The notes beneath the pieces were generated by a model. It was not told the origin of the DNA, ran no database searches, and saw only the letters and a program-made list of their open reading frames with translations. From positions 73-64,072 of the forward strand of contig JANPGK010000012.1 of NCBI GenBank assembly GCA_031423895.1: DNA of 64,000 bases, written 5' to 3'. The stretch's first letter is position 1. The number at the start of each line of letters is the position of its first letter. The translations under genes were made by a program, and so were the position numbers. This stretch comes from Hyphomicrobiales bacterium. GTDB lineage: Bacteria > Pseudomonadota > Alphaproteobacteria > Rhizobiales > JANPGK01. This document shows, piece by piece, positions 4,091-57,789 of the stretch.

Positions 4091-4231
4091 TATACCCTTA
4101 GATATTCAAAACTTTGCAAGCTCACGCACCAAGCTTTGGGTATACACCCCACCACATTAACCCTATTCGCGCGTTTGACTTGAACTTGGTTAAAATTTCG
4201 TCAATAGTCGTTTCATTCATGAGGTTGCCCC

Positions 4232-4839: not shown

Positions 4840-6198
4840 TCACTTCACGTAATCATACAGATCCAGCAGCTCGATCTCTTTTTTACCTTTTGCCAATTTA
4901 TCGAAATAGGCGGCGCCATTGGCATTCAGTCGATCCACTAAACCCCAAGATAATAAATTCTTAGACGACCGATACCCTTCTGAGTCTTTTGCAAGCCTGT
5001 TCAGTTTTCTGTCCTTAAAAACGCTGGCTTTATAAAGCGCAATAAATTCTGCTTTATCAATCGTGCCGCCGATATCACGATCTAATGCATTGTATTGTAA
5101 AGTCTCCAATCGCAGAATTTTATTCGCTTTCAAATCGAAAAATGTCGATTTAATGTCAGCAATTTTCTGCTGCACAAATCCTGTTGCAATATTGGCATTC
5201 GCAAATTTTTGAATGTTCACATTACCATTAGAATCTTTTGCTGGCCCAAACGTCCGCTGCAAAATTTGCTCCTTAATCGTCCCACTGGGGATAAAGGCGC
5301 CAATCTCAGTTGATGGCGTATATTTAGCCCCTTTAATAGATCCAAAATCATACGCATTTCTTTGCTCTAGTAGGTTTAATACGCCATCCCCATCATCAAA
5401 ATCTTTAAATACACGTTTTTCTTTGCCACTCAGCGCGCTTAAATCTAATTCTACAAGCGACGATAAGAATGATTTTTTAGCTTTTATTTCGCCTGTGTCG
5501 TTATCAAAGGAAAACGCAACGCCCATTTCTTGCGGGGTAATACCCTTTTCGCCATCAATTGCTGCTAATTTTCGCACAAATGAAGCAATTTTGCGATATG
5601 GAACGCCAAGCGCTTTCGCATCATTGAGGGTTAAATCGGGCGTTAACTTGCCATTTTTAAATTTGATATGGTCATCCAGATCCGCTTTTTGCAGGCCAAT
5701 TGTCATTTGCGTTTCAAGGGGTAACGACTGCCCTTTTTTAAGTTTTGGTCGGTGTGCACTCTTCAAAATCTCATTCGCATTTGCATCCGCATTTTTGAGT
5801 TCTTCGCACTTTACAGGCGTGAGAATATTAGCAATTTGCGGGGCGTTCATATCTAAATATGACACCATCTCACCTTCGCTATTTTTAGCGTTGACCCATT
5901 TCACAGTGCTTTTCAATTTATCCATGACTTTATTATAGCCATCAATCATACTCGCGCGTTTGGCATCATATTGTTCACGATCATATGCACGTGAGGATAA
6001 CAAATCTTTTGGGTACATTTTTAAGTAGGTATAAACTATTTTGCGGTCAGATTCAGTACCAACTGTAATCAGCCCTTGATTGATAGCATTCTCAAATTCA
6101 GATTCATCAATTTTGTTATCTGCAACACGAGAATTGGCAATTTGGTTATAAAGTTTTTTTTGCTCTTCTGTAAGGTTTGGAACGTTATTAAATGACAT
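4840..6198 (-). CDS. AT-rich orphan protein, 452 aa, with one canonical EF-hand loop near the C-terminus
   Basis: This is a long ORF with K/D/E/N-rich composition and ggag 9 nt upstream of the ATG. I saw no signal peptide or TM helix. The loop DRDIGGTIDKAEF fits D-x-D-x-G-G-x-I-x-x-x-E. Confidence 0.8.
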   Translation of the reverse strand: MSFNNVPNLTEEQKKLYNQIANSRVADNKIDESEFENAINQGLITVGTESDRKIVYTYLKMYPKDLLSSRAYDREQYDAKRASMIDGYNKVMDKLKSTVKWVNAKNSEGEMVSYLDMNAPQIANILTPVKCEELKNADANANEILKSAHRPKLKKGQSLPLETQMTIGLQKADLDDHIKFKNGKLTPDLTLNDAKALGVPYRKIASFVRKLAAIDGEKGITPQEMGVAFSFDNDTGEIKAKKSFLSSLVELDLSALSGKEKRVFKDFDDGDGVLNLLEQRNAYDFGSIKGAKYTPSTEIGAFIPSGTIKEQILQRTFGPAKDSNGNVNIQKFANANIATGFVQQKIADIKSTFFDLKANKILRLETLQYNALDRDIGGTIDKAEFIALYKASVFKDRKLNRLAKDSEGYRSSKNLLSWGLVDRLNANGAAYFDKLAKGKKEIELLDLYDYVK

Positions 6199-9068: not shown

Positions 9069-9179
9069 CATTCCTGTTATCAAGCGTCTTTAGGTGTTGA
9101 AATTATTTTAAGAATAATGTTTCTTCTTTTCATACAAACAATACCGTTTGTACCAAAATTTCTATTTAGGAACCTAACA

Positions 9180-9674
9180 ATGAAAAAAATCCTTGTGCTT
9201 GCAGCCTTGGCTGGTGCTGTTCTTGTTTCCCCTTCTATCGCTCAAGAAAAAAACATGGACATGGTCAAAAAATGGTATGAAGGTGTTTTCCAGAAACAAG
9301 ATACTGCAAATGAAGGCTTTATCTCAAGAGACGCCTACATGGTGATGTCTACAGCTGAATTTCTTAAAATGGATACAAACAAAGACGGAAAAATCTCAAA
9401 AACTGAGTATATGAGTTCAAAAGTATCTGGTTTTTCTGATGTACCAACTCAATCCAAAGAAAAATCCATGGGAATGGCAAAAAAATGGTATGAAGGTGTT
9501 TTCCAGAAACAAGACACTGCAAATGAAGGCTTTATCTCAAGAGACGCCTACATGGTGATGTCCACAGCTGAATTTCTTAAAATGGATAAAAATAAAGACG
9601 GAAAAATCTCAAAAGTTGAGTACATAGACACCAGCTTAGATGGCTATTCACAAATGGTAAATCAAGGCAACTAA
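9180..9674 (+). CDS. Secreted/periplasmic EF-hand calcium-binding protein (two duplicated EF-hand pairs)
   Basis: MKKILVLAALAGAVLVSPSIAQE is a signal peptide. There are two copies of ..QDTANEGFISRDAY..MDTNKDGKISKTEY (canonical D-x-N-x-D-G-x-I-x-x-x-E loop). agga lies upstream of the ATG at 9180. Confidence 0.85.
   Translation: MKKILVLAALAGAVLVSPSIAQEKNMDMVKKWYEGVFQKQDTANEGFISRDAYMVMSTAEFLKMDTNKDGKISKTEYMSSKVSGFSDVPTQSKEKSMGMAKKWYEGVFQKQDTANEGFISRDAYMVMSTAEFLKMDKNKDGKISKVEYIDTSLDGYSQMVNQGN
9261..9623 (+). repeat. Internal tandem duplication (150-nt units at 9261-9410 and 9474-9623, period 213 nt)
   Basis: By my count the two 150-nt units differ at 9 positions, giving 3 amino-acid changes. 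Confidence 0.9.
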
Positions 9675-32526: not shown

Positions 32527-33246
32527 GTGCACTATCCCCTATATCCACCGCAAAAACTGATTTTAAATGGTGTGAGCCTGCAGCGGGGGCATGACATAAT
32601 TTTGCGTGAGGTGAATTTCACATTCAATAGCGGCGCGTGCTATAGCATTTTGGGGCCAAACGGTATTGGCAAAACCACATTATTGCGTGCGATTTGCGGG
32701 CTGCTGCCACCACTTTCTGGCACCATCACACATACATGCGATGGCGCATTGGCGCAACATGCGCATTTTCTTGCGCATACCAATGGCGTGAAAGCCACAC
32801 TAACCGTGGCGGAGCAGCTGGCGTTTTGGCGCGGGGTGCTGGTCGAAACCGAAACTTCTTTTGAGTGTCATTCTGAGGCGCAGCCGAAGAATCTCCCTGA
32901 ACGGAGCGCAACTCAGGGAAGATCCTTCGCTTCACTCAGGATGACAGCGATTGAGGATGACGCAATTATTCAAATAATAGGCCTCACCGACTTTACCAAT
33001 ACACCCACCACAAAGCTCTCCGCAGGGCAGCGCAAACGCTTGGCATTAGGGCGTATACTCATCGCGCCGCGCCCCATTTGGTGCTTGGACGAGCCCACCA
33101 ACACGCTCGATGCACATGGCGTGCAATTATTGACCAGCATGATAGCACAACACACTCAAAATGGCGGTATTGCGCTGGTGGCAACGCATATTCAGCCACT
33201 TTTTGAGGGTGAGATCGCGCTTAACTTACAACATTTTGCGAGTTAG
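32527..33246 (+). CDS. ccmA: Heme exporter ATP-binding protein CcmA, carrying an in-frame repeat-derived insertion
   Basis: It has Walker A GPNGIGKTTLLR, signature LSAGQRKRLAL and Walker B IWCLDEP. At 239 aa it is longer than the roughly 200-210 aa usual for CcmA. The start is a GTG. Confidence 0.88.
   Translation: MHYPLYPPQKLILNGVSLQRGHDIILREVNFTFNSGACYSILGPNGIGKTTLLRAICGLLPPLSGTITHTCDGALAQHAHFLAHTNGVKATLTVAEQLAFWRGVLVETETSFECHSEAQPKNLPERSATQGRSFASLRMTAIEDDAIIQIIGLTDFTNTPTTKLSAGQRKRLALGRILIAPRPIWCLDEPTNTLDAHGVQLLTSMIAQHTQNGGIALVATHIQPLFEGEIALNLQHFAS
32867..32945. repeat. Long imperfect palindromic element (family C, GTCATyCTGAGG type) inside ccmA
   Basis: GTCATTCTGAGgcgcagCCGAAGAATCTCCCTGAacggagcgcaacTCAGGGAAGATCCTTCGcttcaCTCAGGATGAC. 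It is translated as ..CHSEAQPKNLPERSATQGRSFASLRMT.. Confidence 0.85.
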
Positions 33247-33694
33247 CGGATTGTGGCTTCATCATTGTACGTGAATATGCCCATACGCTCGCGCACGCAA
33301 CGCCTATGATAGATGATATTTGAGCGCCTTTTTTCAATTGTGCGATCCAATCTTGTAATACATGATCATACATATAAGAAATCGCACGTGCGGCATCGAT
33401 ATTGTAAACCTCATACGCAGCAAATACCTGATTACGAACAATATTATTAAATTTTTCTAGTGCATCTACGATTTCTGATTTGCGGTACTCATTTGAAAGC
33501 TGACTCCCAAGAACGAGCGCTTCATCCATGAGATTTTTATATGGACGAATCTTCCCATTACGTGCTGCTTCCATAAAAAATTTTGCTGCTTCAATATCTT
33601 CTTTATATTTTTGATCTTTTACAAACTGGCCAAGATCTCTTCCAATTTTTGGTATAGGTAAGGCTGTATTCAACATAAGTTCAAGCGCTAACAT
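33221..33694 (-). CDS. AT-rich tail-anchored orphan protein P6 (157 aa)
   Basis: The N-domain is helical. The C-terminus is ISSIIGVACASVWAYSRTMMKPQSANSQNVVS. The 3' end overlaps the ccmA 3' end by 26 nt (convergent). Confidence 0.7.
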   Translation of the reverse strand: MLALELMLNTALPIPKIGRDLGQFVKDQKYKEDIEAAKFFMEAARNGKIRPYKNLMDEALVLGSQLSNEYRKSEIVDALEKFNNIVRNQVFAAYEVYNIDAARAISYMYDHVLQDWIAQLKKGAQISSIIGVACASVWAYSRTMMKPQSANSQNVVS

Positions 33695-33891: not shown

Positions 33892-36800
33892 ATGATTCAT
33901 GAGGCCGCAATGTTTGCTCAACCTGCTCCACGCACCGCGTTTTTCGCACAATTAGACGCAATTCTCGCCAAAACGGGCCAAAAATTCCTCGGTGCATTCG
34001 CGCAAGACATGTTCGCCCGTGTGGCGTGGGAGGATATCGCCCCTTATAGCGCGGAAGACATTGCTCTATTGGTGCAAAATGCGTGGGCGCACATGGCGGC
34101 CAATCGCAATAATGCCCCATCCATCCGCATTTATGCGCCAGAATTGCCCGCGCACCACGTGCATGTGCTGGAATTGGTGAACACCAATCGCCCGTTTATT
34201 TTCGATTCTGTAATGGGCGAGCTGGCCAGCCGCAACCTCACCGTGCATTTGGTGGCGCACCCTGTGTTGCCACTGCTGCGCAATGGCACAGGTGAATGCG
34301 AAGCATTTGAAAACGCACCGCAAGATGAAGCCGCCACGCGTGAAAGCTTCATTCACATTCATATCGACCCAATTGAGGATGATGCCGCAAAAAAAGCCCT
34401 TATTACCGCTCTGGAACTGGTGCTGCGCGATGTGGAATTTGCGGTGGATGATTGGAAATTGATGTTGGCGCGGCTCGATGCGCAAATTGCCAGCTTCAAA
34501 ACTATGCCTCCGCCTGTAGAACCCGCCGAGGCCGAAGAAGCTTTGGCCTTTATGGAATGGCTGCGCGACAATAACTTCACCCTGCTGGGCCTGCGGGAAT
34601 ATGCCTATGTGGGAGATGCAGGCCAAGGCCGACTTGAACCGATTGACACCACAGGGCTGGGCATTTTGCGCGACCCCGCAGTGGGCATTTTGCGTCGTGG
34701 CACACAAGCGGTCACCATGACAGATGAGCTGCAAGCCTTCATCAATGCCCCGCAGCCGTTGATTGTGAGCAAAGCCAACAGCCGCGCGCGCGTGCACCGC
34801 CATGTGCATATGGATTATGTGGGCATTAAAATTTTTGATAGCAAAGGTGCCCTCAGCGGAGAATTGCGACTCACAGGGTTGTTCACCTCCACCGCCTATA
34901 CACGCTCAGTGCGCAGCATTCCGTTTATTCGCGCCAAAGCCCAGTTTGTGCTGGATGAAGCGGGGTTCGCGCCCGATAGCCACTCGGGCAAATCGCTGCT
35001 CACGGTACTAGAAAACTTCCCGCGTGATGAGCTATTTCAGCTAAGCAATCTGCAGCTGTATGAATTTGCCATTGCGGTGCTGCAGCTGGAAGAACGCCCC
35101 CGTATTCGTGTACTGGCGCGGCGCGATAAGTTTGAGCGGTTTATATCCGTATTGGCCTATGTACCGCGTGAGCGTATAACAACCGAAATTCGCCTAAAAA
35201 TTGGCGAGATATTGGCCGAAGCCTTTGGCGGTCGCGTGTCTATTTTTACCCCTTCTTATACGGAAGGGGCGCTGGCAAGACTGCAATTTGTGATCGGCAA
35301 ACCCACGGATGTAGTGCTGTACCCCGAGCAAGCCGCACTGGAACTGGCCATTTCAAACTGTGTGCGCAGCTGGCACGAGCATTTACTGGAAGTGATCAGC
35401 CATGATACGGGCGCCGATCTTCACACCGCCAGAGGGTTGCACACCACTTGGGGGCACGCGTTCGATGCCGCCTATCAGCAAGATTTCAGCGTGTTTACCG
35501 CACAAAACGACATCAAAACGCTAGAGAAAATGCGCGGTGAGCAAGCCATTGCGCTCGATTTTTTTTCATTATCAGAAGAACCGTCCACCGCGCTGCACCT
35601 GCGCCTCTTCCATAAAAATAGCCCCATCGCACTGTCTGAACGCGTGCCGATGCTGGAAAATATGGGCTTCCGCGTGATCAGCGAGCGCACCTATACACTA
35701 CGCCCCGTATATGATGGGGTCACACACGCCACAGCATTTTTGCATGATATGCTGCTCACGCGCGCTGATGGCACAGAGTCCCCGCAAGATGACGCATTAT
35801 TTGCGCGGCTGGAGCGCATGTTCAATGCCGTGTGGGATGGCGTAGCCGAAAATGATTTATTCAACGCATTGTGCCTCAAAACGGGGCTGGAATGGCGCGA
35901 AATTGCGGTGTTGCGTGCCATTGCCCGCTATTTGCGGCAAATTCAAAGTACATACACCCTCACCTATATGGCGCACACCATGTGCAAGCATCATGTGATC
36001 GCACGGGACATTGTGGCGCTGTTCACAAGCAAATTTAACCCCGATTTGGGCGCCGATATGGCCCAACGCACTCCCATTGTGGAGGGCTGGCGCACCGCAA
36101 TTGTGCAAGCGCTCACCAGTGTGAGCAGCCTTGATGAAGACCGAATTTTGCGCCGTTTTCTGAATGTAATTGAGGCAATGCTGCGGACGAATTATTATCA
36201 AGAAACTGCGGCCGATACGATTAGCTTCAAACTCAATTCATCTCAACTCGACCATCTGCCCAAGCCTGTGCCCATGGCCGAAATTTGGGTGTATAGCCCG
36301 CGCGTAGAGGGCGTACATTTGCGCTTTGGCCGCATTGCCCGTGGCGGCTTACGCTGGAGCGACCGCCCGCAGGATTTCCGCACCGAAGTGCTGGGGTTGG
36401 TGAAGGCGCAACAGGTGAAAAATGCCGTGATCGTGCCAGTAGGCGCAAAAGGTGGCTTTTTCCCGAAAAAAATGCCAGAAAACCCACCGCGCGATGTGAT
36501 GATGGCAGAGGGCACCGCCAGCTATATTCAATTTGTGTCGTCGCTTTTGGCCATCACCGATAATCGTGCGCCATCGGGGGAAATTCTGCCACCAGCCAAT
36601 GTCATTCGCTATGATGGCGACGATCCATACCTCGTTGTTGCCGCCGATAAAGGTACCGCCACATTTTCCGACACCGCAAATGGCATTTCAGCTACCCACG
36701 AATTTTGGCTGGGAGATGCGTTCGCATCAGGTGGCTCGGTGGGGTATGATCACAAAAAAATGGGCATCACCGCACGCGGCGGTTGGGAGGCAGTAAAACG

Positions 36801-38619
36801 CCACTTCCGCGAAATAAACATTGATATTCAAATCACACCCTTCACTGTGGCGGGTGTGGGGGATATGTCCGGCGATGTGTTTGGCAATGCCATGCTGCTC
36901 TCGCGCGCCATAAAGCTTGTGGCCGCGTTCGACCACCGCGATATTTTCCTTGACCCTAACCCTGATATTGAGACCAGCTTCAATGAACGCGACCGCATGT
37001 TCAAGCTGCCGCGCTCGTCTTGGGCGGATTATAATGCGGAGCTAATTTCCACAGGCGGCGGTGTATTCTCACGCACGCTCAAATCTATTCCCATATCTGA
37101 TGAGGTTGCCGCTGCTTTGGGCGTCACCGCCAAAGAGATGACACCCGATGAGCTGATGAATGCGATTTTAAAAGCACCGGTAGATTTGATGTGGTTCGGC
37201 GGCATTGGCACCTATATTCGCAGCACCGATGAAACCGATGCCCAAGTGGGCGACCGCGCCAATGATTCTGTACGCATCACCGCGCCCGAATTGCGGGCAA
37301 AAGTGGTGGGTGAAGGCGCTAATTTGGGGCTTACCCAGCGCAGCCGTATCGAGCTGGCACAGCATGGCGTGCGCTTGAACACCGACGCCATCGACAATTC
37401 CGCAGGAGTCAACTCATCAGATGTGGAAGTGAACATTAAAATTGCGTTGGAAGGCGTAGTGCGCTCTGGCCGCCTATCCGTGGAAGACCGCAACATATTG
37501 CTGGCCTCAATGACCACCGAGGTGGCGCATTTGGTGCTCTCCAATAATTATCGGCAAACGCTAGCGGTTTCAATCGCCCAACACGATGCAGTGGAAGACC
37601 TCGCCTTTGCTGAACGCTTGATGCTGCAACTAGAAGCCACAGGCCAGCTCGACCGCGTTGTAGAATACCTCCCCAGTAGCGCGGACATAACGCGCCGTGC
37701 ATCGATTGGAACAGGCCTTACTCGCCCCGAAATTGCGGTGCTACTGGCCTATTCCAAACTATCGCTTAAGGCGCAATTGCTCACATCGGACTGTTTAGAC
37801 GATCCCGCCCTCACGCCCATGTTGCTCGACTATTTCCCTCATGCATTGCAAGAGGCATATCCGCAAGAAGTGTTGGCGCATGGCTTGCGCCGCGAGATTA
37901 TTGCCACAAAATTAGTGAATTTGGTGATCGATCGCGGCGGATTCACCATTGTGCCGCGCATGATGGACCAAACAGGCACCACACCTATACATTTGGCATT
38001 GGCATTTGCGCTTGCATGGCAGGTGTTTGAAGGCGATGCCCGTGTGGCCATTATCGACTCGCTTGATAATACCGATGGCATAGCACAATTGGCTGCCTAT
38101 GCCCGCTTACAAAATTTTATGCGCAACCAAACCCTATGGTTTATTCGAAATGAACGCTTCGATGCACCGCTGGAAACCCTCATCGCCACCTACACACAAG
38201 GGTTGCACCGCATTCACATGGGCGAAATGCTGCCGCTGAGCGGGCTCGACAATGCACCCGAACTCATTCGCATTCAACAGGCCACCACCGCCCCCATGGC
38301 GCAAGTGATCAATACATGGACCGCAGTTTCTCAAGCATTTTTAGTGCCAGAACTGTTGCAAAAAACCAAAACGATTGCGAGTGAAACCTATCACGATACA
38401 CTGGCGCAAGCCCGCATGATGCACGACATCACTCGCGCGCAGCATAATATCACACGTGCGGCGCTGCAAGCAGGCGGCTTTTCGGCATGGCAACAACCCA
38501 TGCAGGAGGACATGCTGCGCATTCGCCAACGCATTGCTGATGAATTAAAGGTGGAGCGCATGACATTGGCACGACTTGCTGTTATAAGTGGCTTTATCAC
38601 CGATATCGCCCCACAATAA
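33892..38619 (+). CDS. gdhZ: NAD-specific glutamate dehydrogenase, large (about 180 kDa) type
   Basis: The 1575-aa protein contains ..RGGLRWSDRPQDFRTEVLGLVKAQQVKNAVIVPVGAKGGF.. and ..GDMSGDVFGN.., characteristic of the giant bacterial GDH family. Confidence 0.95.
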   Translation: MIHEAAMFAQPAPRTAFFAQLDAILAKTGQKFLGAFAQDMFARVAWEDIAPYSAEDIALLVQNAWAHMAANRNNAPSIRIYAPELPAHHVHVLELVNTNRPFIFDSVMGELASRNLTVHLVAHPVLPLLRNGTGECEAFENAPQDEAATRESFIHIHIDPIEDDAAKKALITALELVLRDVEFAVDDWKLMLARLDAQIASFKTMPPPVEPAEAEEALAFMEWLRDNNFTLLGLREYAYVGDAGQGRLEPIDTTGLGILRDPAVGILRRGTQAVTMTDELQAFINAPQPLIVSKANSRARVHRHVHMDYVGIKIFDSKGALSGELRLTGLFTSTAYTRSVRSIPFIRAKAQFVLDEAGFAPDSHSGKSLLTVLENFPRDELFQLSNLQLYEFAIAVLQLEERPRIRVLARRDKFERFISVLAYVPRERITTEIRLKIGEILAEAFGGRVSIFTPSYTEGALARLQFVIGKPTDVVLYPEQAALELAISNCVRSWHEHLLEVISHDTGADLHTARGLHTTWGHAFDAAYQQDFSVFTAQNDIKTLEKMRGEQAIALDFFSLSEEPSTALHLRLFHKNSPIALSERVPMLENMGFRVISERTYTLRPVYDGVTHATAFLHDMLLTRADGTESPQDDALFARLERMFNAVWDGVAENDLFNALCLKTGLEWREIAVLRAIARYLRQIQSTYTLTYMAHTMCKHHVIARDIVALFTSKFNPDLGADMAQRTPIVEGWRTAIVQALTSVSSLDEDRILRRFLNVIEAMLRTNYYQETAADTISFKLNSSQLDHLPKPVPMAEIWVYSPRVEGVHLRFGRIARGGLRWSDRPQDFRTEVLGLVKAQQVKNAVIVPVGAKGGFFPKKMPENPPRDVMMAEGTASYIQFVSSLLAITDNRAPSGEILPPANVIRYDGDDPYLVVAADKGTATFSDTANGISATHEFWLGDAFASGGSVGYDHKKMGITARGGWEAVKRHFREINIDIQITPFTVAGVGDMSGDVFGNAMLLSRAIKLVAAFDHRDIFLDPNPDIETSFNERDRMFKLPRSSWADYNAELISTGGGVFSRTLKSIPISDEVAAALGVTAKEMTPDELMNAILKAPVDLMWFGGIGTYIRSTDETDAQVGDRANDSVRITAPELRAKVVGEGANLGLTQRSRIELAQHGVRLNTDAIDNSAGVNSSDVEVNIKIALEGVVRSGRLSVEDRNILLASMTTEVAHLVLSNNYRQTLAVSIAQHDAVEDLAFAERLMLQLEATGQLDRVVEYLPSSADITRRASIGTGLTRPEIAVLLAYSKLSLKAQLLTSDCLDDPALTPMLLDYFPHALQEAYPQEVLAHGLRREIIATKLVNLVIDRGGFTIVPRMMDQTGTTPIHLALAFALAWQVFEGDARVAIIDSLDNTDGIAQLAAYARLQNFMRNQTLWFIRNERFDAPLETLIATYTQGLHRIHMGEMLPLSGLDNAPELIRIQQATTAPMAQVINTWTAVSQAFLVPELLQKTKTIASETYHDTLAQARMMHDITRAQHNITRAALQAGGFSAWQQPMQEDMLRIRQRIADELKVERMTLARLAVISGFITDIAPQ

Positions 38620-38633
38620 CACCCGATCCAAAC

Positions 38634-39296
38634 ATGTCTTCACCGCTTCTCACTTGGTTTTCCGTTGAAACACGCACCGCAGCGCGCGGGGGCATGGCGT
38701 GGGCGCACACCACAGCGATGTTTGCAACATTAGTGCTGCTGTTGCCCTTTGCATTTGGCAATGAGCTGGCGCAATTGCGCGAAATTGCTCTGCGCGCCAT
38801 GTGGTTCAACGCCATGCTCGTTCAAGTGCTGGCCATGAACACGCTATTCCACGATGATTTAGATGACGGCACGCTGGAGCTGATCCCCGCCTCGCACCTG
38901 CCATTATGGCACTATAGTGCGGGGAAAATCGCCATCGCATGGATGCTCTATGGTGTGCCATTGGCCGCTATCACCCCCATTTTGGCGGTGGCGTTCGATG
39001 TGCATATGGCGCAAGTGCTGGCGCTGCTGGCCAGCTTAATGGTTGGCACCCTCGCCATTTCAGCCCTGTGCAGCCTTGGCGCTGCCGTAAATTTGGCTCT
39101 GCCGCGTGGTAGCGTTCTCTCGAGCCTTTTGGTGCTGCCATTGTGCGTGCCGGTGCTGATTTTTGGCATTTCCGCCGCCAGCGACCCTGCAATTTTCACA
39201 GCGGCAATGTCGGGCCTGTTTGGACTTGCTTTGCTCTATGGGCTTATTGCAATTTTCGCCACGCCTGCAATTGTGCGCATAGTGCTAGCGCGCTAA
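38634..39296 (+). CDS. ccmB: Heme exporter membrane protein CcmB
   Basis: The 220-aa polytopic membrane protein contains ..FHDDLDDGTLELI.., typical of CcmB. Confidence 0.92.
   Translation: MSSPLLTWFSVETRTAARGGMAWAHTTAMFATLVLLLPFAFGNELAQLREIALRAMWFNAMLVQVLAMNTLFHDDLDDGTLELIPASHLPLWHYSAGKIAIAWMLYGVPLAAITPILAVAFDVHMAQVLALLASLMVGTLAISALCSLGAAVNLALPRGSVLSSLLVLPLCVPVLIFGISAASDPAIFTAAMSGLFGLALLYGLIAIFATPAIVRIVLAR
39247..39283 (+). repeat. Direct repeat, copy A (authentic ccmB 3' end)
   Basis: ttgcaattttcgccacgcctgcaattgtgcgcatagt encodes IAIFATPAIVRIV. It matches 39778-39814 at 31 of 37 positions by my count. Confidence 0.8.
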
Positions 39297-39297
39297 A

Positions 39298-39705
39298 TTA
39301 TGCAGCTGCATCAGGCTTGCGAACCGCCCGTTCAACGCCAAATAATGCCAAAGCACCAATCAATAATCTTAATGGCATATTTGTAACATTATGTAGCCCA
39401 ACACGATAATGCCAGATTGAATTCTTTAAAAGCCCATCGCATGATTTTTGTTTTGAATACAAATCTTTCAGTTTTGAAACAAACAAATCATACCCAGATT
39501 GAAGAATTGGCATATCAATATCTTTAAATTTATGGGTATTTGCAGTATGTTCTGAAAGAACTTTCATAATTTCACCAGAAGACCTAGAAATGCTATTTCT
39601 TTTATGAACATTATGTTCATAATCCATAAATTTAATTTCTAATTCTAATTTTACTTTACTAAATTCAGCATACATGCTGTTGCATACATCAAACGCAGAT
39701 GTCAT
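39298..39705 (-). CDS. AT-rich tail-anchored orphan protein P7 (135 aa)
   Basis: aaggat lies upstream of the ATG. The C-terminus is MPLRLLIGALALFGVERAVRKPDAAA. Its stop codon begins 1 nt after the ccmB stop. Confidence 0.7.
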   Translation of the reverse strand: MTSAFDVCNSMYAEFSKVKLELEIKFMDYEHNVHKRNSISRSSGEIMKVLSEHTANTHKFKDIDMPILQSGYDLFVSKLKDLYSKQKSCDGLLKNSIWHYRVGLHNVTNMPLRLLIGALALFGVERAVRKPDAAA

Positions 39706-39777
39706 TTCATTATCCTTTTAATTACTAATATGGGAAAAAGCACACGCTTATGCACCTCGTCAAGCCTTATGTTGATG

Positions 39778-39814
39778 TTGCAATTTTCGTAACACTCGCT
39801 ATTGTGCGCATAGT
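39778..39814 (+). repeat. Direct repeat, copy B (relic of the ccmB 3' end immediately upstream of ccmC)
   Basis: ttgcaattttcgtaacactcgctattgtgcgcatagt would encode VAIFVTLAIVRIV. It lies 16 nt upstream of the ccmC ATG. Confidence 0.8.
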
Positions 39815-39829
39815 TTTGGCACGGTCATC

Positions 39830-40558
39830 ATGCTTACATTCCCCGCTCCTTCTGCGCTTCTCAGTTTCATCAATCGCTGGTGTATGCCCATGTTTGTGCT
39901 GTCATTGGTGCTCATCGCCGCTGGCCTGTGGTGGATTTTCACCAAAACCCCACCCGATTACCAACAAGGCAATTCAGCAAAGATCATGTTTGTGCATGTG
40001 CCCACCGCATGGGGTAGTATGGGTATTTATGTGCTGATGACTCTCATGAGTGTTCTGTCTCTAATATATCGCAACCCGCTAACTGATGTGGTGGCCAAAG
40101 CCTGCGCGCCCGTTGGCATGTGTGTATGTGGGATTTGCCTCATCACAGGCTCATTGTGGGGCAAACCCATGTGGGGCGCCTGGTGGGTGTGGGATGCGCG
40201 CCTCACTTCCATGCTCGTGCTATTTTTGCTTTATGTAGCACTCGTGCTGCTGTGGCGTAGCTTTGCAGGCATGGCCTCGGCTACACGCATTATGGCGGTG
40301 GTTACACTGGTGGGGTTCATCAATATCCCGATCATCAAATTCTCGGTGGAATGGTGGAATACATTGCATCAACCCGCCAGCGTGCTGCGTAGTGGCGGCG
40401 CCGCGCTTGCGCCCGAATTTCTTTATCCTCTGCTTTACATGGCGGCATGCGGCACATTACTCGCCACAAGTTTCATTCTATTTGGCCTGCGCAATGAATT
40501 GCTCGCACTCAAACTCCACGCTAGCCAGCGCCGTGGTTACACACATGGGGGGAATTAA
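39830..40558 (+). CDS. ccmC: Heme exporter protein CcmC
   Basis: ..GSLWGKPMWGAWWVWDARLTS.. is the WGxxWxWD tryptophan-rich heme-handling motif. Confidence 0.95.
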   Translation: MLTFPAPSALLSFINRWCMPMFVLSLVLIAAGLWWIFTKTPPDYQQGNSAKIMFVHVPTAWGSMGIYVLMTLMSVLSLIYRNPLTDVVAKACAPVGMCVCGICLITGSLWGKPMWGAWWVWDARLTSMLVLFLLYVALVLLWRSFAGMASATRIMAVVTLVGFINIPIIKFSVEWWNTLHQPASVLRSGGAALAPEFLYPLLYMAACGTLLATSFILFGLRNELLALKLHASQRRGYTHGGN

Positions 40559-45075: not shown

Positions 45076-45242
45076 ATGCTGGCCTTGTATGAGCGTGTGA
45101 AAGCGTCCTGTAGCCTATATAGGGCATAATTGCAATTTTGCCAGTGGGTTTAGAAAGAATTTTTGAATATAAGGGCTGTCATTGACAGGGCACTTACCGT
45201 TTGCTATCTGAAGCAAGTGATAGTTATTTTGGATATAATGTG

Positions 45243-45728
45243 ATGTATGATGCAGTTCGTGCTAATATAAAACTCTCACCGCTCGCACAAGAAATATTTA
45301 ATAATCAGCATTTTCAAAAAGGAATTGGGTTTATAAATAATACAGCTCCACTTTACACGAACATTAAAGAAGTTGATAGACAGGTATTACATTTTCATAA
45401 AATTACAGACAAAGGAATGCGGGCCGCTATTAATTTGCGTGGTTTGATTTTTCATCAAGAGTATACTATCGGTGGGTTGCTAACTACAAAGGGTATTTAC
45501 AACAAACAAGAGATGACAACGGCCTTAAATGAGGTGATGACTCACCTAAGAGCAAATTTATCACCGAATGTAGTTACGGCTAGATTTCAGAGCATTGCTT
45601 TCAATATGATCGCAAGCGCCTTTAAAACTTCCGCTGGCTTATGCACTGTAGCCCTTTTAGTAAGCGCGGCTTTATCATCAAAATTCATATCAGCATTGAA
45701 TCATCCGAAGCCTTCAGCAGAATCATAA
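45243..45728 (+). CDS. AT-rich tail-anchored orphan protein P8 (161 aa; ORF track starts at TTG 45201)
   Basis: The C-terminus is TSAGLCTVALLVSAALSSKFISALNHPKPSAES. The gene lies antisense between tilS and ftsH, and its 3' end overlaps the tilS stop region by 6 nt. Confidence 0.6.
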   Translation: MYDAVRANIKLSPLAQEIFNNQHFQKGIGFINNTAPLYTNIKEVDRQVLHFHKITDKGMRAAINLRGLIFHQEYTIGGLLTTKGIYNKQEMTTALNEVMTHLRANLSPNVVTARFQSIAFNMIASAFKTSAGLCTVALLVSAALSSKFISALNHPKPSAES

Positions 45729-48151: not shown

Positions 48152-48223
48152 AACCGTTATCCTCGGGCTAGACCCGAGGATCTACTTAAGTTGATGGTCG
48201 GGTCTAGCCCGACCATGACGGTT
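48152..48223. repeat. Double-hairpin palindromic repeat, family B, filling the ahcY/ubiG convergent spacer
   Basis: aaccgtt-ATCCTCGGGctagaCCCGAGGATctacttaagttg-ATGGTCGGGtctagCCCGACCAT-gacggtt. The outer inverted pair is aaccgt/acggtt. The right end overlaps the ubiG stop codon. Confidence 0.88.
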
Positions 48224-50348: not shown

Positions 50349-50418
50349 TTAAGTAGATCCTCGGGCGAAGACCCGAGGATCTACTTAAGAAGATGGTCGG
50401 GTCAAGCCCGACCATGAC
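50349..50418. repeat. Double-hairpin palindromic repeat, family B, in the lysC/peroxiredoxin convergent spacer
   Basis: TTAAGTAGATCCTCGGGcgaagaCCCGAGGATCTACTTAAgaag-ATGGTCGGGtcaagCCCGACCAT-gac. It is nearly identical to the copy at 48152. Confidence 0.9.
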
Positions 50419-50427
50419 GTGCGGGCC

Positions 50428-57291: not shown

Positions 57292-57384
57292 GCGTGCTCG
57301 CCGCACTTAATATTTTGATTTTACTTCTGCACGCAGCTGTGCCATAGTACATCTCTATTCAATAGATATATTTTGGAGCCTATA

Positions 57385-57789
57385 ATGACAATCCTCATCA
57401 AAGAACTTAGCGAATACAATCAATACGTAACTGATATAAAGACAACAATTGCAAAATTAGACCTCGAAATTACAAATGCTAAAATTGAAGCAAAAAAGTC
57501 GCCAACAATTTTAAATAGTTTAAGTAATTTCTTCTCAGGTGCAACGACTGAGCTTACAAACGCAAAGTCAACCGCACTAGTTATGAACCCAAAAACAACA
57601 ATTAATATGAAAGAATACGAAGGTTTTATAAAAAATAAAGGTACTATTGAAAGCAGTATCCACTTCGTAAAAACCTACCTTATAACCATAAAGAAAAATT
57701 TGCCCACTTCTATCTTGGTGTTGGCAGGGCTTGTAGGTGCGAGTGCATGGTTCGCCTCGCGCAATCTATCAAAAGACCAGATTTCATAA
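57385..57789 (+). CDS. Small tail-anchored protein, family member P5 (134 aa)
   Basis: tggag lies 7 nt upstream of the ATG. MTILIKELSEYNQY.. resembles the P1/P2/P4 N-termini. The C-terminus is ILVLAGLVGASAWFASRNLSKDQIS. The gene is AT-rich. Confidence 0.75.
   Translation: MTILIKELSEYNQYVTDIKTTIAKLDLEITNAKIEAKKSPTILNSLSNFFSGATTELTNAKSTALVMNPKTTINMKEYEGFIKNKGTIESSIHFVKTYLITIKKNLPTSILVLAGLVGASAWFASRNLSKDQIS

Follow-up and report, generated by a model that had tools for sequence, protein, structure and literature searches.

Two copies of the ccmB end flank an orphan gene

The DNA analysed here is a window of 64,000 nucleotides (nt; 64 kb) on a single contig, JANPGK010000012.1 (positions 73 to 64,072, forward strand), from GCA_031423895.1, a metagenome assembly of a Hyphomicrobiales bacterium; all coordinates below are positions in this window. 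Its subject is the junction between ccmB and ccmC, where an orphan open reading frame (ORF), P7, lies between two copies of the ccmB 3′ end. The locus reads ccmB (+), P7 (−), a 124-nt spacer, ccmC (+), ccmD and ccmG. The ccmB gene (38634–39296, +) is an intact ORF of 220 amino acids (aa) that ends in a TAA stop at 39294–39296 and matches PF03379 (E = 3.6e-38) and TIGR01190. The ccmC gene (39830–40558, +) is likewise intact (TIGR01191, 231 bits), and both identities are confirmed by Pfam and NCBIfam. tblastn matches to CcmC in relatives begin at residue 1, and the sequence holds no in-frame alternative ccmC start 5′ of 39830. P7, a 135-aa ORF from the ORF list, occupies 39298–39705 on the minus strand. 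Its coordinates agree with a preliminary description of this DNA that had placed it between the copies, on the opposite strand, with its stop codon (39298–39300) beginning 1 nt past the ccmB stop.

Copy 1 of the repeat (39247–39303, +) covers the final 16 codons of the functional ccmB, in the frame from 39246, then the TAA, a spacer and an ATGC like that at the start of ccmC. Copy 2 (39778–39833, +) is a displaced, non-functional ccmB 3′ end that reads VAIFVTLAIVRIVLAR in the ccmB frame from 39777, has TCA at the position of the ccmB stop and runs into the real ccmC ATG at 39830. The segment between them (39304–39776), which is non-native, consists of the P7 body and its 71-nt upstream region. 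The duplicated ccmB end had been reported in the preliminary description and lies where it was placed, as does its second copy, ending 16 nt before the ccmC ATG. That copy is read in frame by a 95-aa ORF (39750–40037, +) that then overlaps ccmC out of frame and is most likely spurious.

The repeat stands far above chance. Counted from the match string, 31 of 37 nt are identical between 39247–39283 and 39778–39814. A repeat search extends the ungapped match to 46 nt at 78% identity (39247–39292 and 39778–39823, spacing 531), and an alignment with one gap carries it to 57 nt (39247–39303 and 39778–39833), through the stop and spacer to the ccmC ATGC. The local alignment score of 26 is reached by 0 of 2,000 dinucleotide shuffles (mean 8.9, s.d. 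1.4, maximum 17; z ~12). When the spacer that precedes ccmC is compared with the whole window, the ccmB 3′ end is the top match, at 26, and the next scores 15; BLASTN of the repeat within the window gives E = 4.9e-6. The weaker similarity said to extend about 20 nt further upstream did not hold up, being not significant by itself in the alignment test. A collinear match of 39308–39338 to the ccmC 5′ end was also considered (p ~0.06) and rejected as probable chance; this DNA encodes the polar tail of P7 itself.

Two blocks are identical in both copies, one of 12 nt (TTGCAATTTTCG; 39247–39258 and 39778–39789, +) and one of 14 nt (ATTGTGCGCATAGT; 39270–39283 and 39801–39814, +). Together they are candidate crossover or conversion tracts. 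They are not inverted-repeat binding sites, and neither block recurs elsewhere in the window or at its other islets. Copy 2 sits where the ribosome-binding region of ccmC must be, and the source is a metagenome assembly, so that the repeat could in principle be a functional motif such as the ccmC translation-initiation region, or a chimera of two strains, if it is not a chance match. We consider this set of explanations hardly credible. No shuffle reaches the observed score, and a motif would sit poorly with conservation that is weakest in the 20 nt beside the ATG and tracks codon periodicity rather than distance from the ATG, or with identical blocks that are absent from the rest of the window. 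A chimera is opposed by the agreement, base for base, of two assemblies and by a divergence of 22%, which is not strain-level variation. The second, independent assembly, made by Logan from run SRR20217181, matches the whole structure at 100% identity; drawn from the same sample, it argues against an assembler artefact as the source of the repeat but carries no information on strain variation.

A well-supported insertion into a once-contiguous ccm cluster

We compared gene order across 80 alphaproteobacterial genome loci recovered with CcmC, and gap lengths across 101 alphaproteobacterial loci. The gap between ccmB and ccmC has a median of 73 nt and is 200 nt or less in 92 of the 101 loci, and the order ccmA–ccmB–ccmC occurs in 60 of the 80 genome loci, mostly with a divergent acnA upstream. 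By this comparison ccmB and ccmC were almost certainly adjacent ancestrally. The tight gaps, together with the widespread arrangement of acnA beside ccmABC in relatives, make an insertion into a formerly tight, contiguous ccmB–ccmC junction well supported. The proposal in the preliminary description that the two genes were originally adjacent is upheld by these gaps; the AT-rich segment of roughly 0.5 kb that it saw entering the 3′ end of ccmB corresponds to an insert of about 0.48 kb.

The insert is foreign in composition. GC content between the copies is 0.25–0.31, compared with 0.50 for the window, and GC content at third codon positions (GC3) is 0.22 in P7 as against 0.58–0.64 in gdh, ccmB and ccmC; BLASTN found no similarity between 39304–39776 and the rest of the window. 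It amounts to exactly one gene and the 71 nt upstream of it, set between two copies of the junction with both flanking genes intact. Because the junction stands on both sides of the insert, ccmB retains a complete 3′ end and ccmC retains its native upstream sequence. The scar is a rare base-level record of an orphan gene entering a tightly packed housekeeping operon with neither neighbour damaged, the doubled junction leaving ccmB its C-terminus and ccmC its upstream sequence.

A few relatives carry unrelated genes between ccmB and ccmC (loci L053, L060, L067 and others), and no junction duplication was found in relatives of this kind (these three and L130, for example). The host lineage is isolated: the nearest CcmB among 5.8e9 proteins is 40–45% identical, and the nearest CcmC, in GTDB genomes and JGI metagenomes, 51–61%. 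Exact encoders of P7, CcmB, CcmC and CcmG were found only in the same sample, SRR20217181, and a literature search on that run accession returned nothing.

The cluster is also broken between ccmA and ccmB. The ccmA gene (32527–33246, +; TIGR01189, 179 bits, cut-off 131.6), which headed the ancestral ccmABCDG cluster, is overlapped at its 3′ end by 26 nt of a 157-aa orphan ORF (33221–33694, −). Beyond it, a 4.7-kb gene for a 1,575-aa NAD-glutamate dehydrogenase (gdh, 33892–38619) ends 14 nt short of the ccmB ATG. No relative among the 80 carries gdh between ccmA and ccmB, and no junction duplication was found at this break.

The two copies differ mostly at silent sites and in patches

Read in the ccmB frame, copy 1 encodes IAIFATPAIVRIVLAR and then the stop, and copy 2 encodes VAIFVTLAIVRIVLAR and then serine. 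The 16 shared codons differ at 12 positions, distributed 2/2/8 over codon positions 1/2/3. Of these, nine are synonymous, counting a leucine codon that changes from CTA to TTG in two steps, and the other three are conservative (I/V, A/V and P/L). The proportion of differences at synonymous sites (pS) is 0.63 and at non-synonymous sites (pN) 0.09, with a dN/dS ratio of ~0.07 (Fisher p = 1.8e-4); the other two reading frames show no silent-site pattern. The divergence is also a mosaic. Two 12-nt blocks, alternating with the identical runs of 12 and 14 nt, contain differences at all eight third positions but at just 3 of the 16 first and second positions. Clustering of the differences departs from uniform placement (p = 0.0012), and a runs test on third positions agrees (p = 0.009).

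Although its synonymous sites are close to saturation, copy 2 shows no insertion or deletion across 48 coding nt, a point in favour of a young event. Saturation of silent sites in patches, tracts of zero divergence and the absence of indels together favour a young joint between homeologous sequences over an old, drifted duplicate, and copy 2 resembles the end of another, functional ccmB. In codon usage there is a mild indication that copy 1 is the native one and copy 2 the foreign: where copy 1 has GTG, CGC and GCC, which the host prefers, copy 2 has GTT, CGG and GTA, which are rare in the host. In an alignment of 120 CcmB homologs the 16 codons span the conserved C-terminal motif F208, A209 and R215. 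Residue A209 is alanine in 116 of the 120 and valine in copy 2, a change compatible with either a foreign version or slight relaxation after displacement.

These features bear on a history close to that of the preliminary description, which had a target region duplicated and its downstream copy decaying thereafter. In such a history a staggered break or replication slip would have doubled about 50–57 nt of the junction in place, selection would have held copy 1, and copy 2 would have decayed neutrally with an AT bias. It is the simplest single-step account and requires neither recombinase nor donor. Copy 2 is indeed more AT-rich at the differences (seven GC-to-AT against three AT-to-GC), reads TCA at the stop position and is changed at the otherwise conserved A209. 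The silent-site pattern fits it poorly. If copy 2 alone had decayed neutrally, keeping at least 13 of 16 residues with no stop after 12 hits would have p = 0.0014; if copy 1 changed silently only and copy 2 neutrally, the conditional probability, given 10–14 differences, is ~0.03–0.06. Clustered differences are unlike uniform decay, and near-saturated silent sites would imply a very old relic, yet there is no indel. We regard duplication in place as possible but doubtful; it stays a live rival because the whole statistical case rests on 16 codons.

Duplication by a transposon was also weighed. Target-site duplications made in bacterial transposition measure about 2–15 bp and are identical when formed. 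The insert at ccmB–ccmC shares with them its flanking direct repeats of target sequence, but the repeat here is 50–57 nt long, 78% identical and differs with codon periodicity, and even at about 50 nt a target duplication would far exceed those known. No terminal inverted repeats were found at the insert ends and no transposase domain in P7. Given the length of the repeat and the lack of such repeats and of a transposase, a transposon-type target duplication is unlikely.

Selection acting on copy 2 at present could also produce a silent-site pattern, were the copy still translated, either within the ORF at 39750–40037 or as a short peptide. That ORF is ATG-initiated and covers copy 2 in the ccmB frame, and the dN/dS of ~0.07 between the copies is what such constraint would leave. 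It has no visible Shine-Dalgarno-like motif, however, continues for 69 codons out of frame through ccmC and has no known homolog, and the codons upstream of 39777 differ radically from those of ccmB (L/K, L/P, L/D). We judge continued translation very unlikely.

A proposed recombination event as the source of one copy

The account towards which we lean, with modest confidence, is a recombination event in which the insert brought with it one of the two junction copies, a homeologous ccmB end. What the sequence shows directly is an AT-rich segment of about 0.48 kb, made up of the minus-strand gene P7 and the 71 nt upstream of it, placed exactly at the ccmB–ccmC junction of a once-contiguous cluster of ccmA–ccmB–ccmC–ccmD–ccmG with acnA divergent beside it; the last 16 ccmB codons, the stop, a spacer of 2–5 nt and the ccmC ATG now stand on both sides. 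The junction copies would be homeologs, each having diverged inside a working ccmB, and one version of the ccmB end would have come in with the insert, to be linked to the chromosome by recombination at this junction.

Two routes could lead there. On the first, a small element bearing a mimic of its target's 3′ end would have integrated in a Campbell-type or att-like manner. On the second, DNA of a diverged relative would have been joined by homology-facilitated illegitimate recombination, through the short identical blocks or ATGC microhomology. By either route one copy would remain as a displaced relic, and the identical 12- and 14-nt blocks may stem from short-patch conversion between the repeats or from the recombination event itself. 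The silent-site, mosaic divergence suggests that the partner in the exchange was a diverged relative not yet sampled; public data contain no close neighbour of this lineage.

Each route has known counterparts. Integrative elements insert in the 3′ end of a gene while carrying a copy of that end (attL/attR), and derivatives that lack an integrase are known as cis-mobilizable elements, or CIMEs (PMC5704250). The ccmB–ccmC locus resembles an att-flanked islet or CIME in that DNA of foreign composition lies between imperfect direct repeats of the target's 3′ end (57 nt, 39247–39303 and 39778–39833), with the target gene intact and the displaced copy of its end beyond the insert. It differs in the size of the insert, about 0.48 kb with one gene, and in its repeats, which are 78% identical and mosaic, with the identical blocks of 12 and 14 nt in place of one shared core. 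As for a cognate integrase, no recombinase domain was detected in the ORFs scanned within the 64-kb window, and an enzyme acting in trans from elsewhere in the genome is conceivable.

Homology-facilitated illegitimate recombination, as treated in PMC5361080 (citing de Vries and Wackernagel 2002, Prudhomme et al. 2002, and Meier and Wackernagel 2003) and in PMC3240628, pairs one homologous or homeologous anchor with one illegitimate joint, here possibly T.ATGC microhomology, and so traps foreign DNA by a conserved gene. The documented events mostly delete recipient DNA and do not duplicate it. A related likeness is to C-terminal displacement at Rhs, CdiA and type VI secretion system (T6SS) effector loci (Jackson et al. 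2009; Kirchberger et al. 2017, PMC5361080), in which an incoming module brings its own form of a conserved gene end and shifts the resident end downstream, where it stays as an orphan fragment. Such a fragment has diverged under coding constraint before its displacement, as may also hold for the copy here. Unlike those loci, ccmB is a housekeeping heme-exporter subunit gene and not a polymorphic toxin gene, both ends encode nearly the same peptide, so that ccmB gains nothing new, and the gene carried in is unrelated and faces the other way.

The insert also recalls an integron cassette, being about 0.5 kb long and consisting of a single ORF whose stop is followed by hardly any non-coding DNA. 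It differs in that it does not lie in a cassette array and no integron integrase or attI was found. The insert ends show no attC-like fold, the DNA folding no more stably than shuffles (z +0.4 to +1.9), and no terminator hairpin; no tRNA or Rfam RNA was found in the 64-kb window. Between an att-flanked islet or CIME on the one hand and illegitimate recombination or gene-end displacement on the other we cannot choose, because the searches found no recombinase in the scanned window ORFs, no attC-like or hairpin end, no recurrence of the identical blocks and no donor.

Several points weigh against an incoming homeologous end. The argument is built on just 16 codons and 12 differences, and the decay model in its best case is rejected only at ~0.03–0.06. 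No donor lineage, second ccmB or relative was found in the collections searched, where the nearest CcmB is 40–45% identical; neither the window genes scanned nor the tRNA and Rfam searches of the 64 kb yielded an integrase, transposase or tRNA gene. The insert, at about 0.48 kb, is far below the size of any integrative element that is autonomous. Nor does a model of homeologs specifically predict the mosaic pattern. Classical gene-end replacement expects the working copy to be the foreign one, and codon usage weakly suggests the opposite. Finally, no flanking scar was found at the other AT-rich, low-GC segments tested, so that no general mechanism is demonstrated.

On present evidence the locus is a single recombination scar of ordinary scale and known kind, an everyday change in a genome that can be read here with unusual clarity. 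Some added interest comes from the way the repeat copies diverge, in a codon-periodic mosaic, and from the isolation of the host lineage.

P7 and the tail-anchored orphans

P7 looks like a real gene, because 135 codons stay open in DNA of 32% GC and an AGGA Shine-Dalgarno-like motif lies 8–11 nt before its ATG (GC 0.32). It belongs to no family in Pfam or NCBIfam, and neither a k-mer search of 5.8e9 proteins nor an exhaustive HMMER search of 1.8e9 representatives returned a homolog. One marginal match (E = 1.4e-4), to a 1,008-aa protein in five stretches, gave no family. The AlphaFold2 (AF2) model is all-helical and of low confidence (pLDDT 48.7), and a short C-terminal hydrophobic segment spans residues 110–124, with a Kyte–Doolittle value of 1.94 in a 15-residue window. 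The corresponding values are 1.65–2.53 for the other seven orphans and 1.69–2.12 for four ORFs (12797, 13181, 14368 and 57373) that are demonstrable paralogs of one another.

P7 and these paralogs have the same architecture, a helical body with a short hydrophobic segment that ends 10–17 residues before the C-terminus. The preliminary description had counted P7 as a tail-anchored member of this family; the architecture bears that out and the homology does not, with hhalign against the family alignment (A2) giving a probability of 0.4% (E = 0.15) and BLASTP E values of 1.8 or worse. Its membership is an architectural resemblance and not a shown homology. No upstream motif common to P7 and the other orphans was found. 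A profile search with the paralog family against 5.8e9 proteins found members on this contig alone. The paralogs (12797–14715 and 57373–57789) are lineage-restricted small helical proteins of 109–138 aa that end in LIGGxxVxxSxWW and a basic tail, and three of them form a tandem AT-rich cluster after hisD.

Two further features lie within P7. A 12-nt palindrome, ATGCAGCTGCAT (39300–39311), stands right after the ccmB stop in the last codons of P7; about 0.13 such palindromes are expected by chance in a region of this size, and it was set aside. An imperfect 67-nt inverted repeat lies inside the coding region (39580–39646; 72%, E = 0.001). Neither feature is clearly above chance or tied to a function.

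Other AT-rich islets in the window

The window as a whole is a run of housekeeping genes (dnaK, dnaJ, typA, aroA, hisD, ftsH, tilS, ahcY, lysC, coaBC, acnA and gdh) broken by AT-rich islets of orphan ORFs. Flank duplications were sought at the other 13 low-GC segments or spans tested, and none was found (z < 2, compared with 11.5 at ccmB–ccmC). The scar documents a single event and not a family-wide mechanism; the earlier suggestion that it makes visible how at least one family member arrived does not carry over to the other low-GC segments tested in the window. If islets throughout the genome bore the same signature, it would establish how the organism comes by its lineage-specific, membrane-anchored proteins.

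Four AT-rich islets hold a single gene (33221–33694, 39298–39705, 45201–45728 and 57373–57789), and in each the stops of the orphan and of a convergent housekeeping gene abut or overlap, at offsets of −26 nt for ccmA, +1 for ccmB, −6 for tilS and +2 for coaBC. Convergent pairs of housekeeping genes in the window are separated by spacers of 75–81 nt. The abutment could reflect a common geometry of insertion or plain genome compaction. A bolder conjecture, which we think improbable, is that the AT-rich single-gene islets are a class of mobile cassettes that would home to gene 3′ ends or operon junctions through an undescribed recombination system. Each would encode a small helical, C-anchored protein whose stop abuts a convergent housekeeping stop, the incoming unit would bear a recoded mimic of the target end, and ccmB–ccmC would be the sole legible joint.

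Three other features of the window were noted. A 51-nt repeat (94%; 48170–48220 and 50369–50419) contains the GC-rich hairpin GGTCGGGTCTAGCCCGACC; its copies, the only two in the window, lie downstream of ahcY and lysC, each in a convergent intergenic spacer, and the element is probably a bidirectional terminator or a small element like the repetitive extragenic palindromic (REP) sequences. The AT-rich ORF at 9117–9674 encodes a signal-peptide-bearing protein with tandem EF-hand calcium-binding motifs and contains an internal 169-nt direct repeat (92%; 9244–9412 and 9457–9625). Two long ORFs have no Pfam match, one at 16153–17538 (461 aa, +) and one, partly AT-rich, at 4840–6198 (452 aa, −); a 34-nt direct repeat at 74% identity (4155–4188 and 5940–5973) flanks the 3′ end of the latter, its second copy lying inside that ORF.

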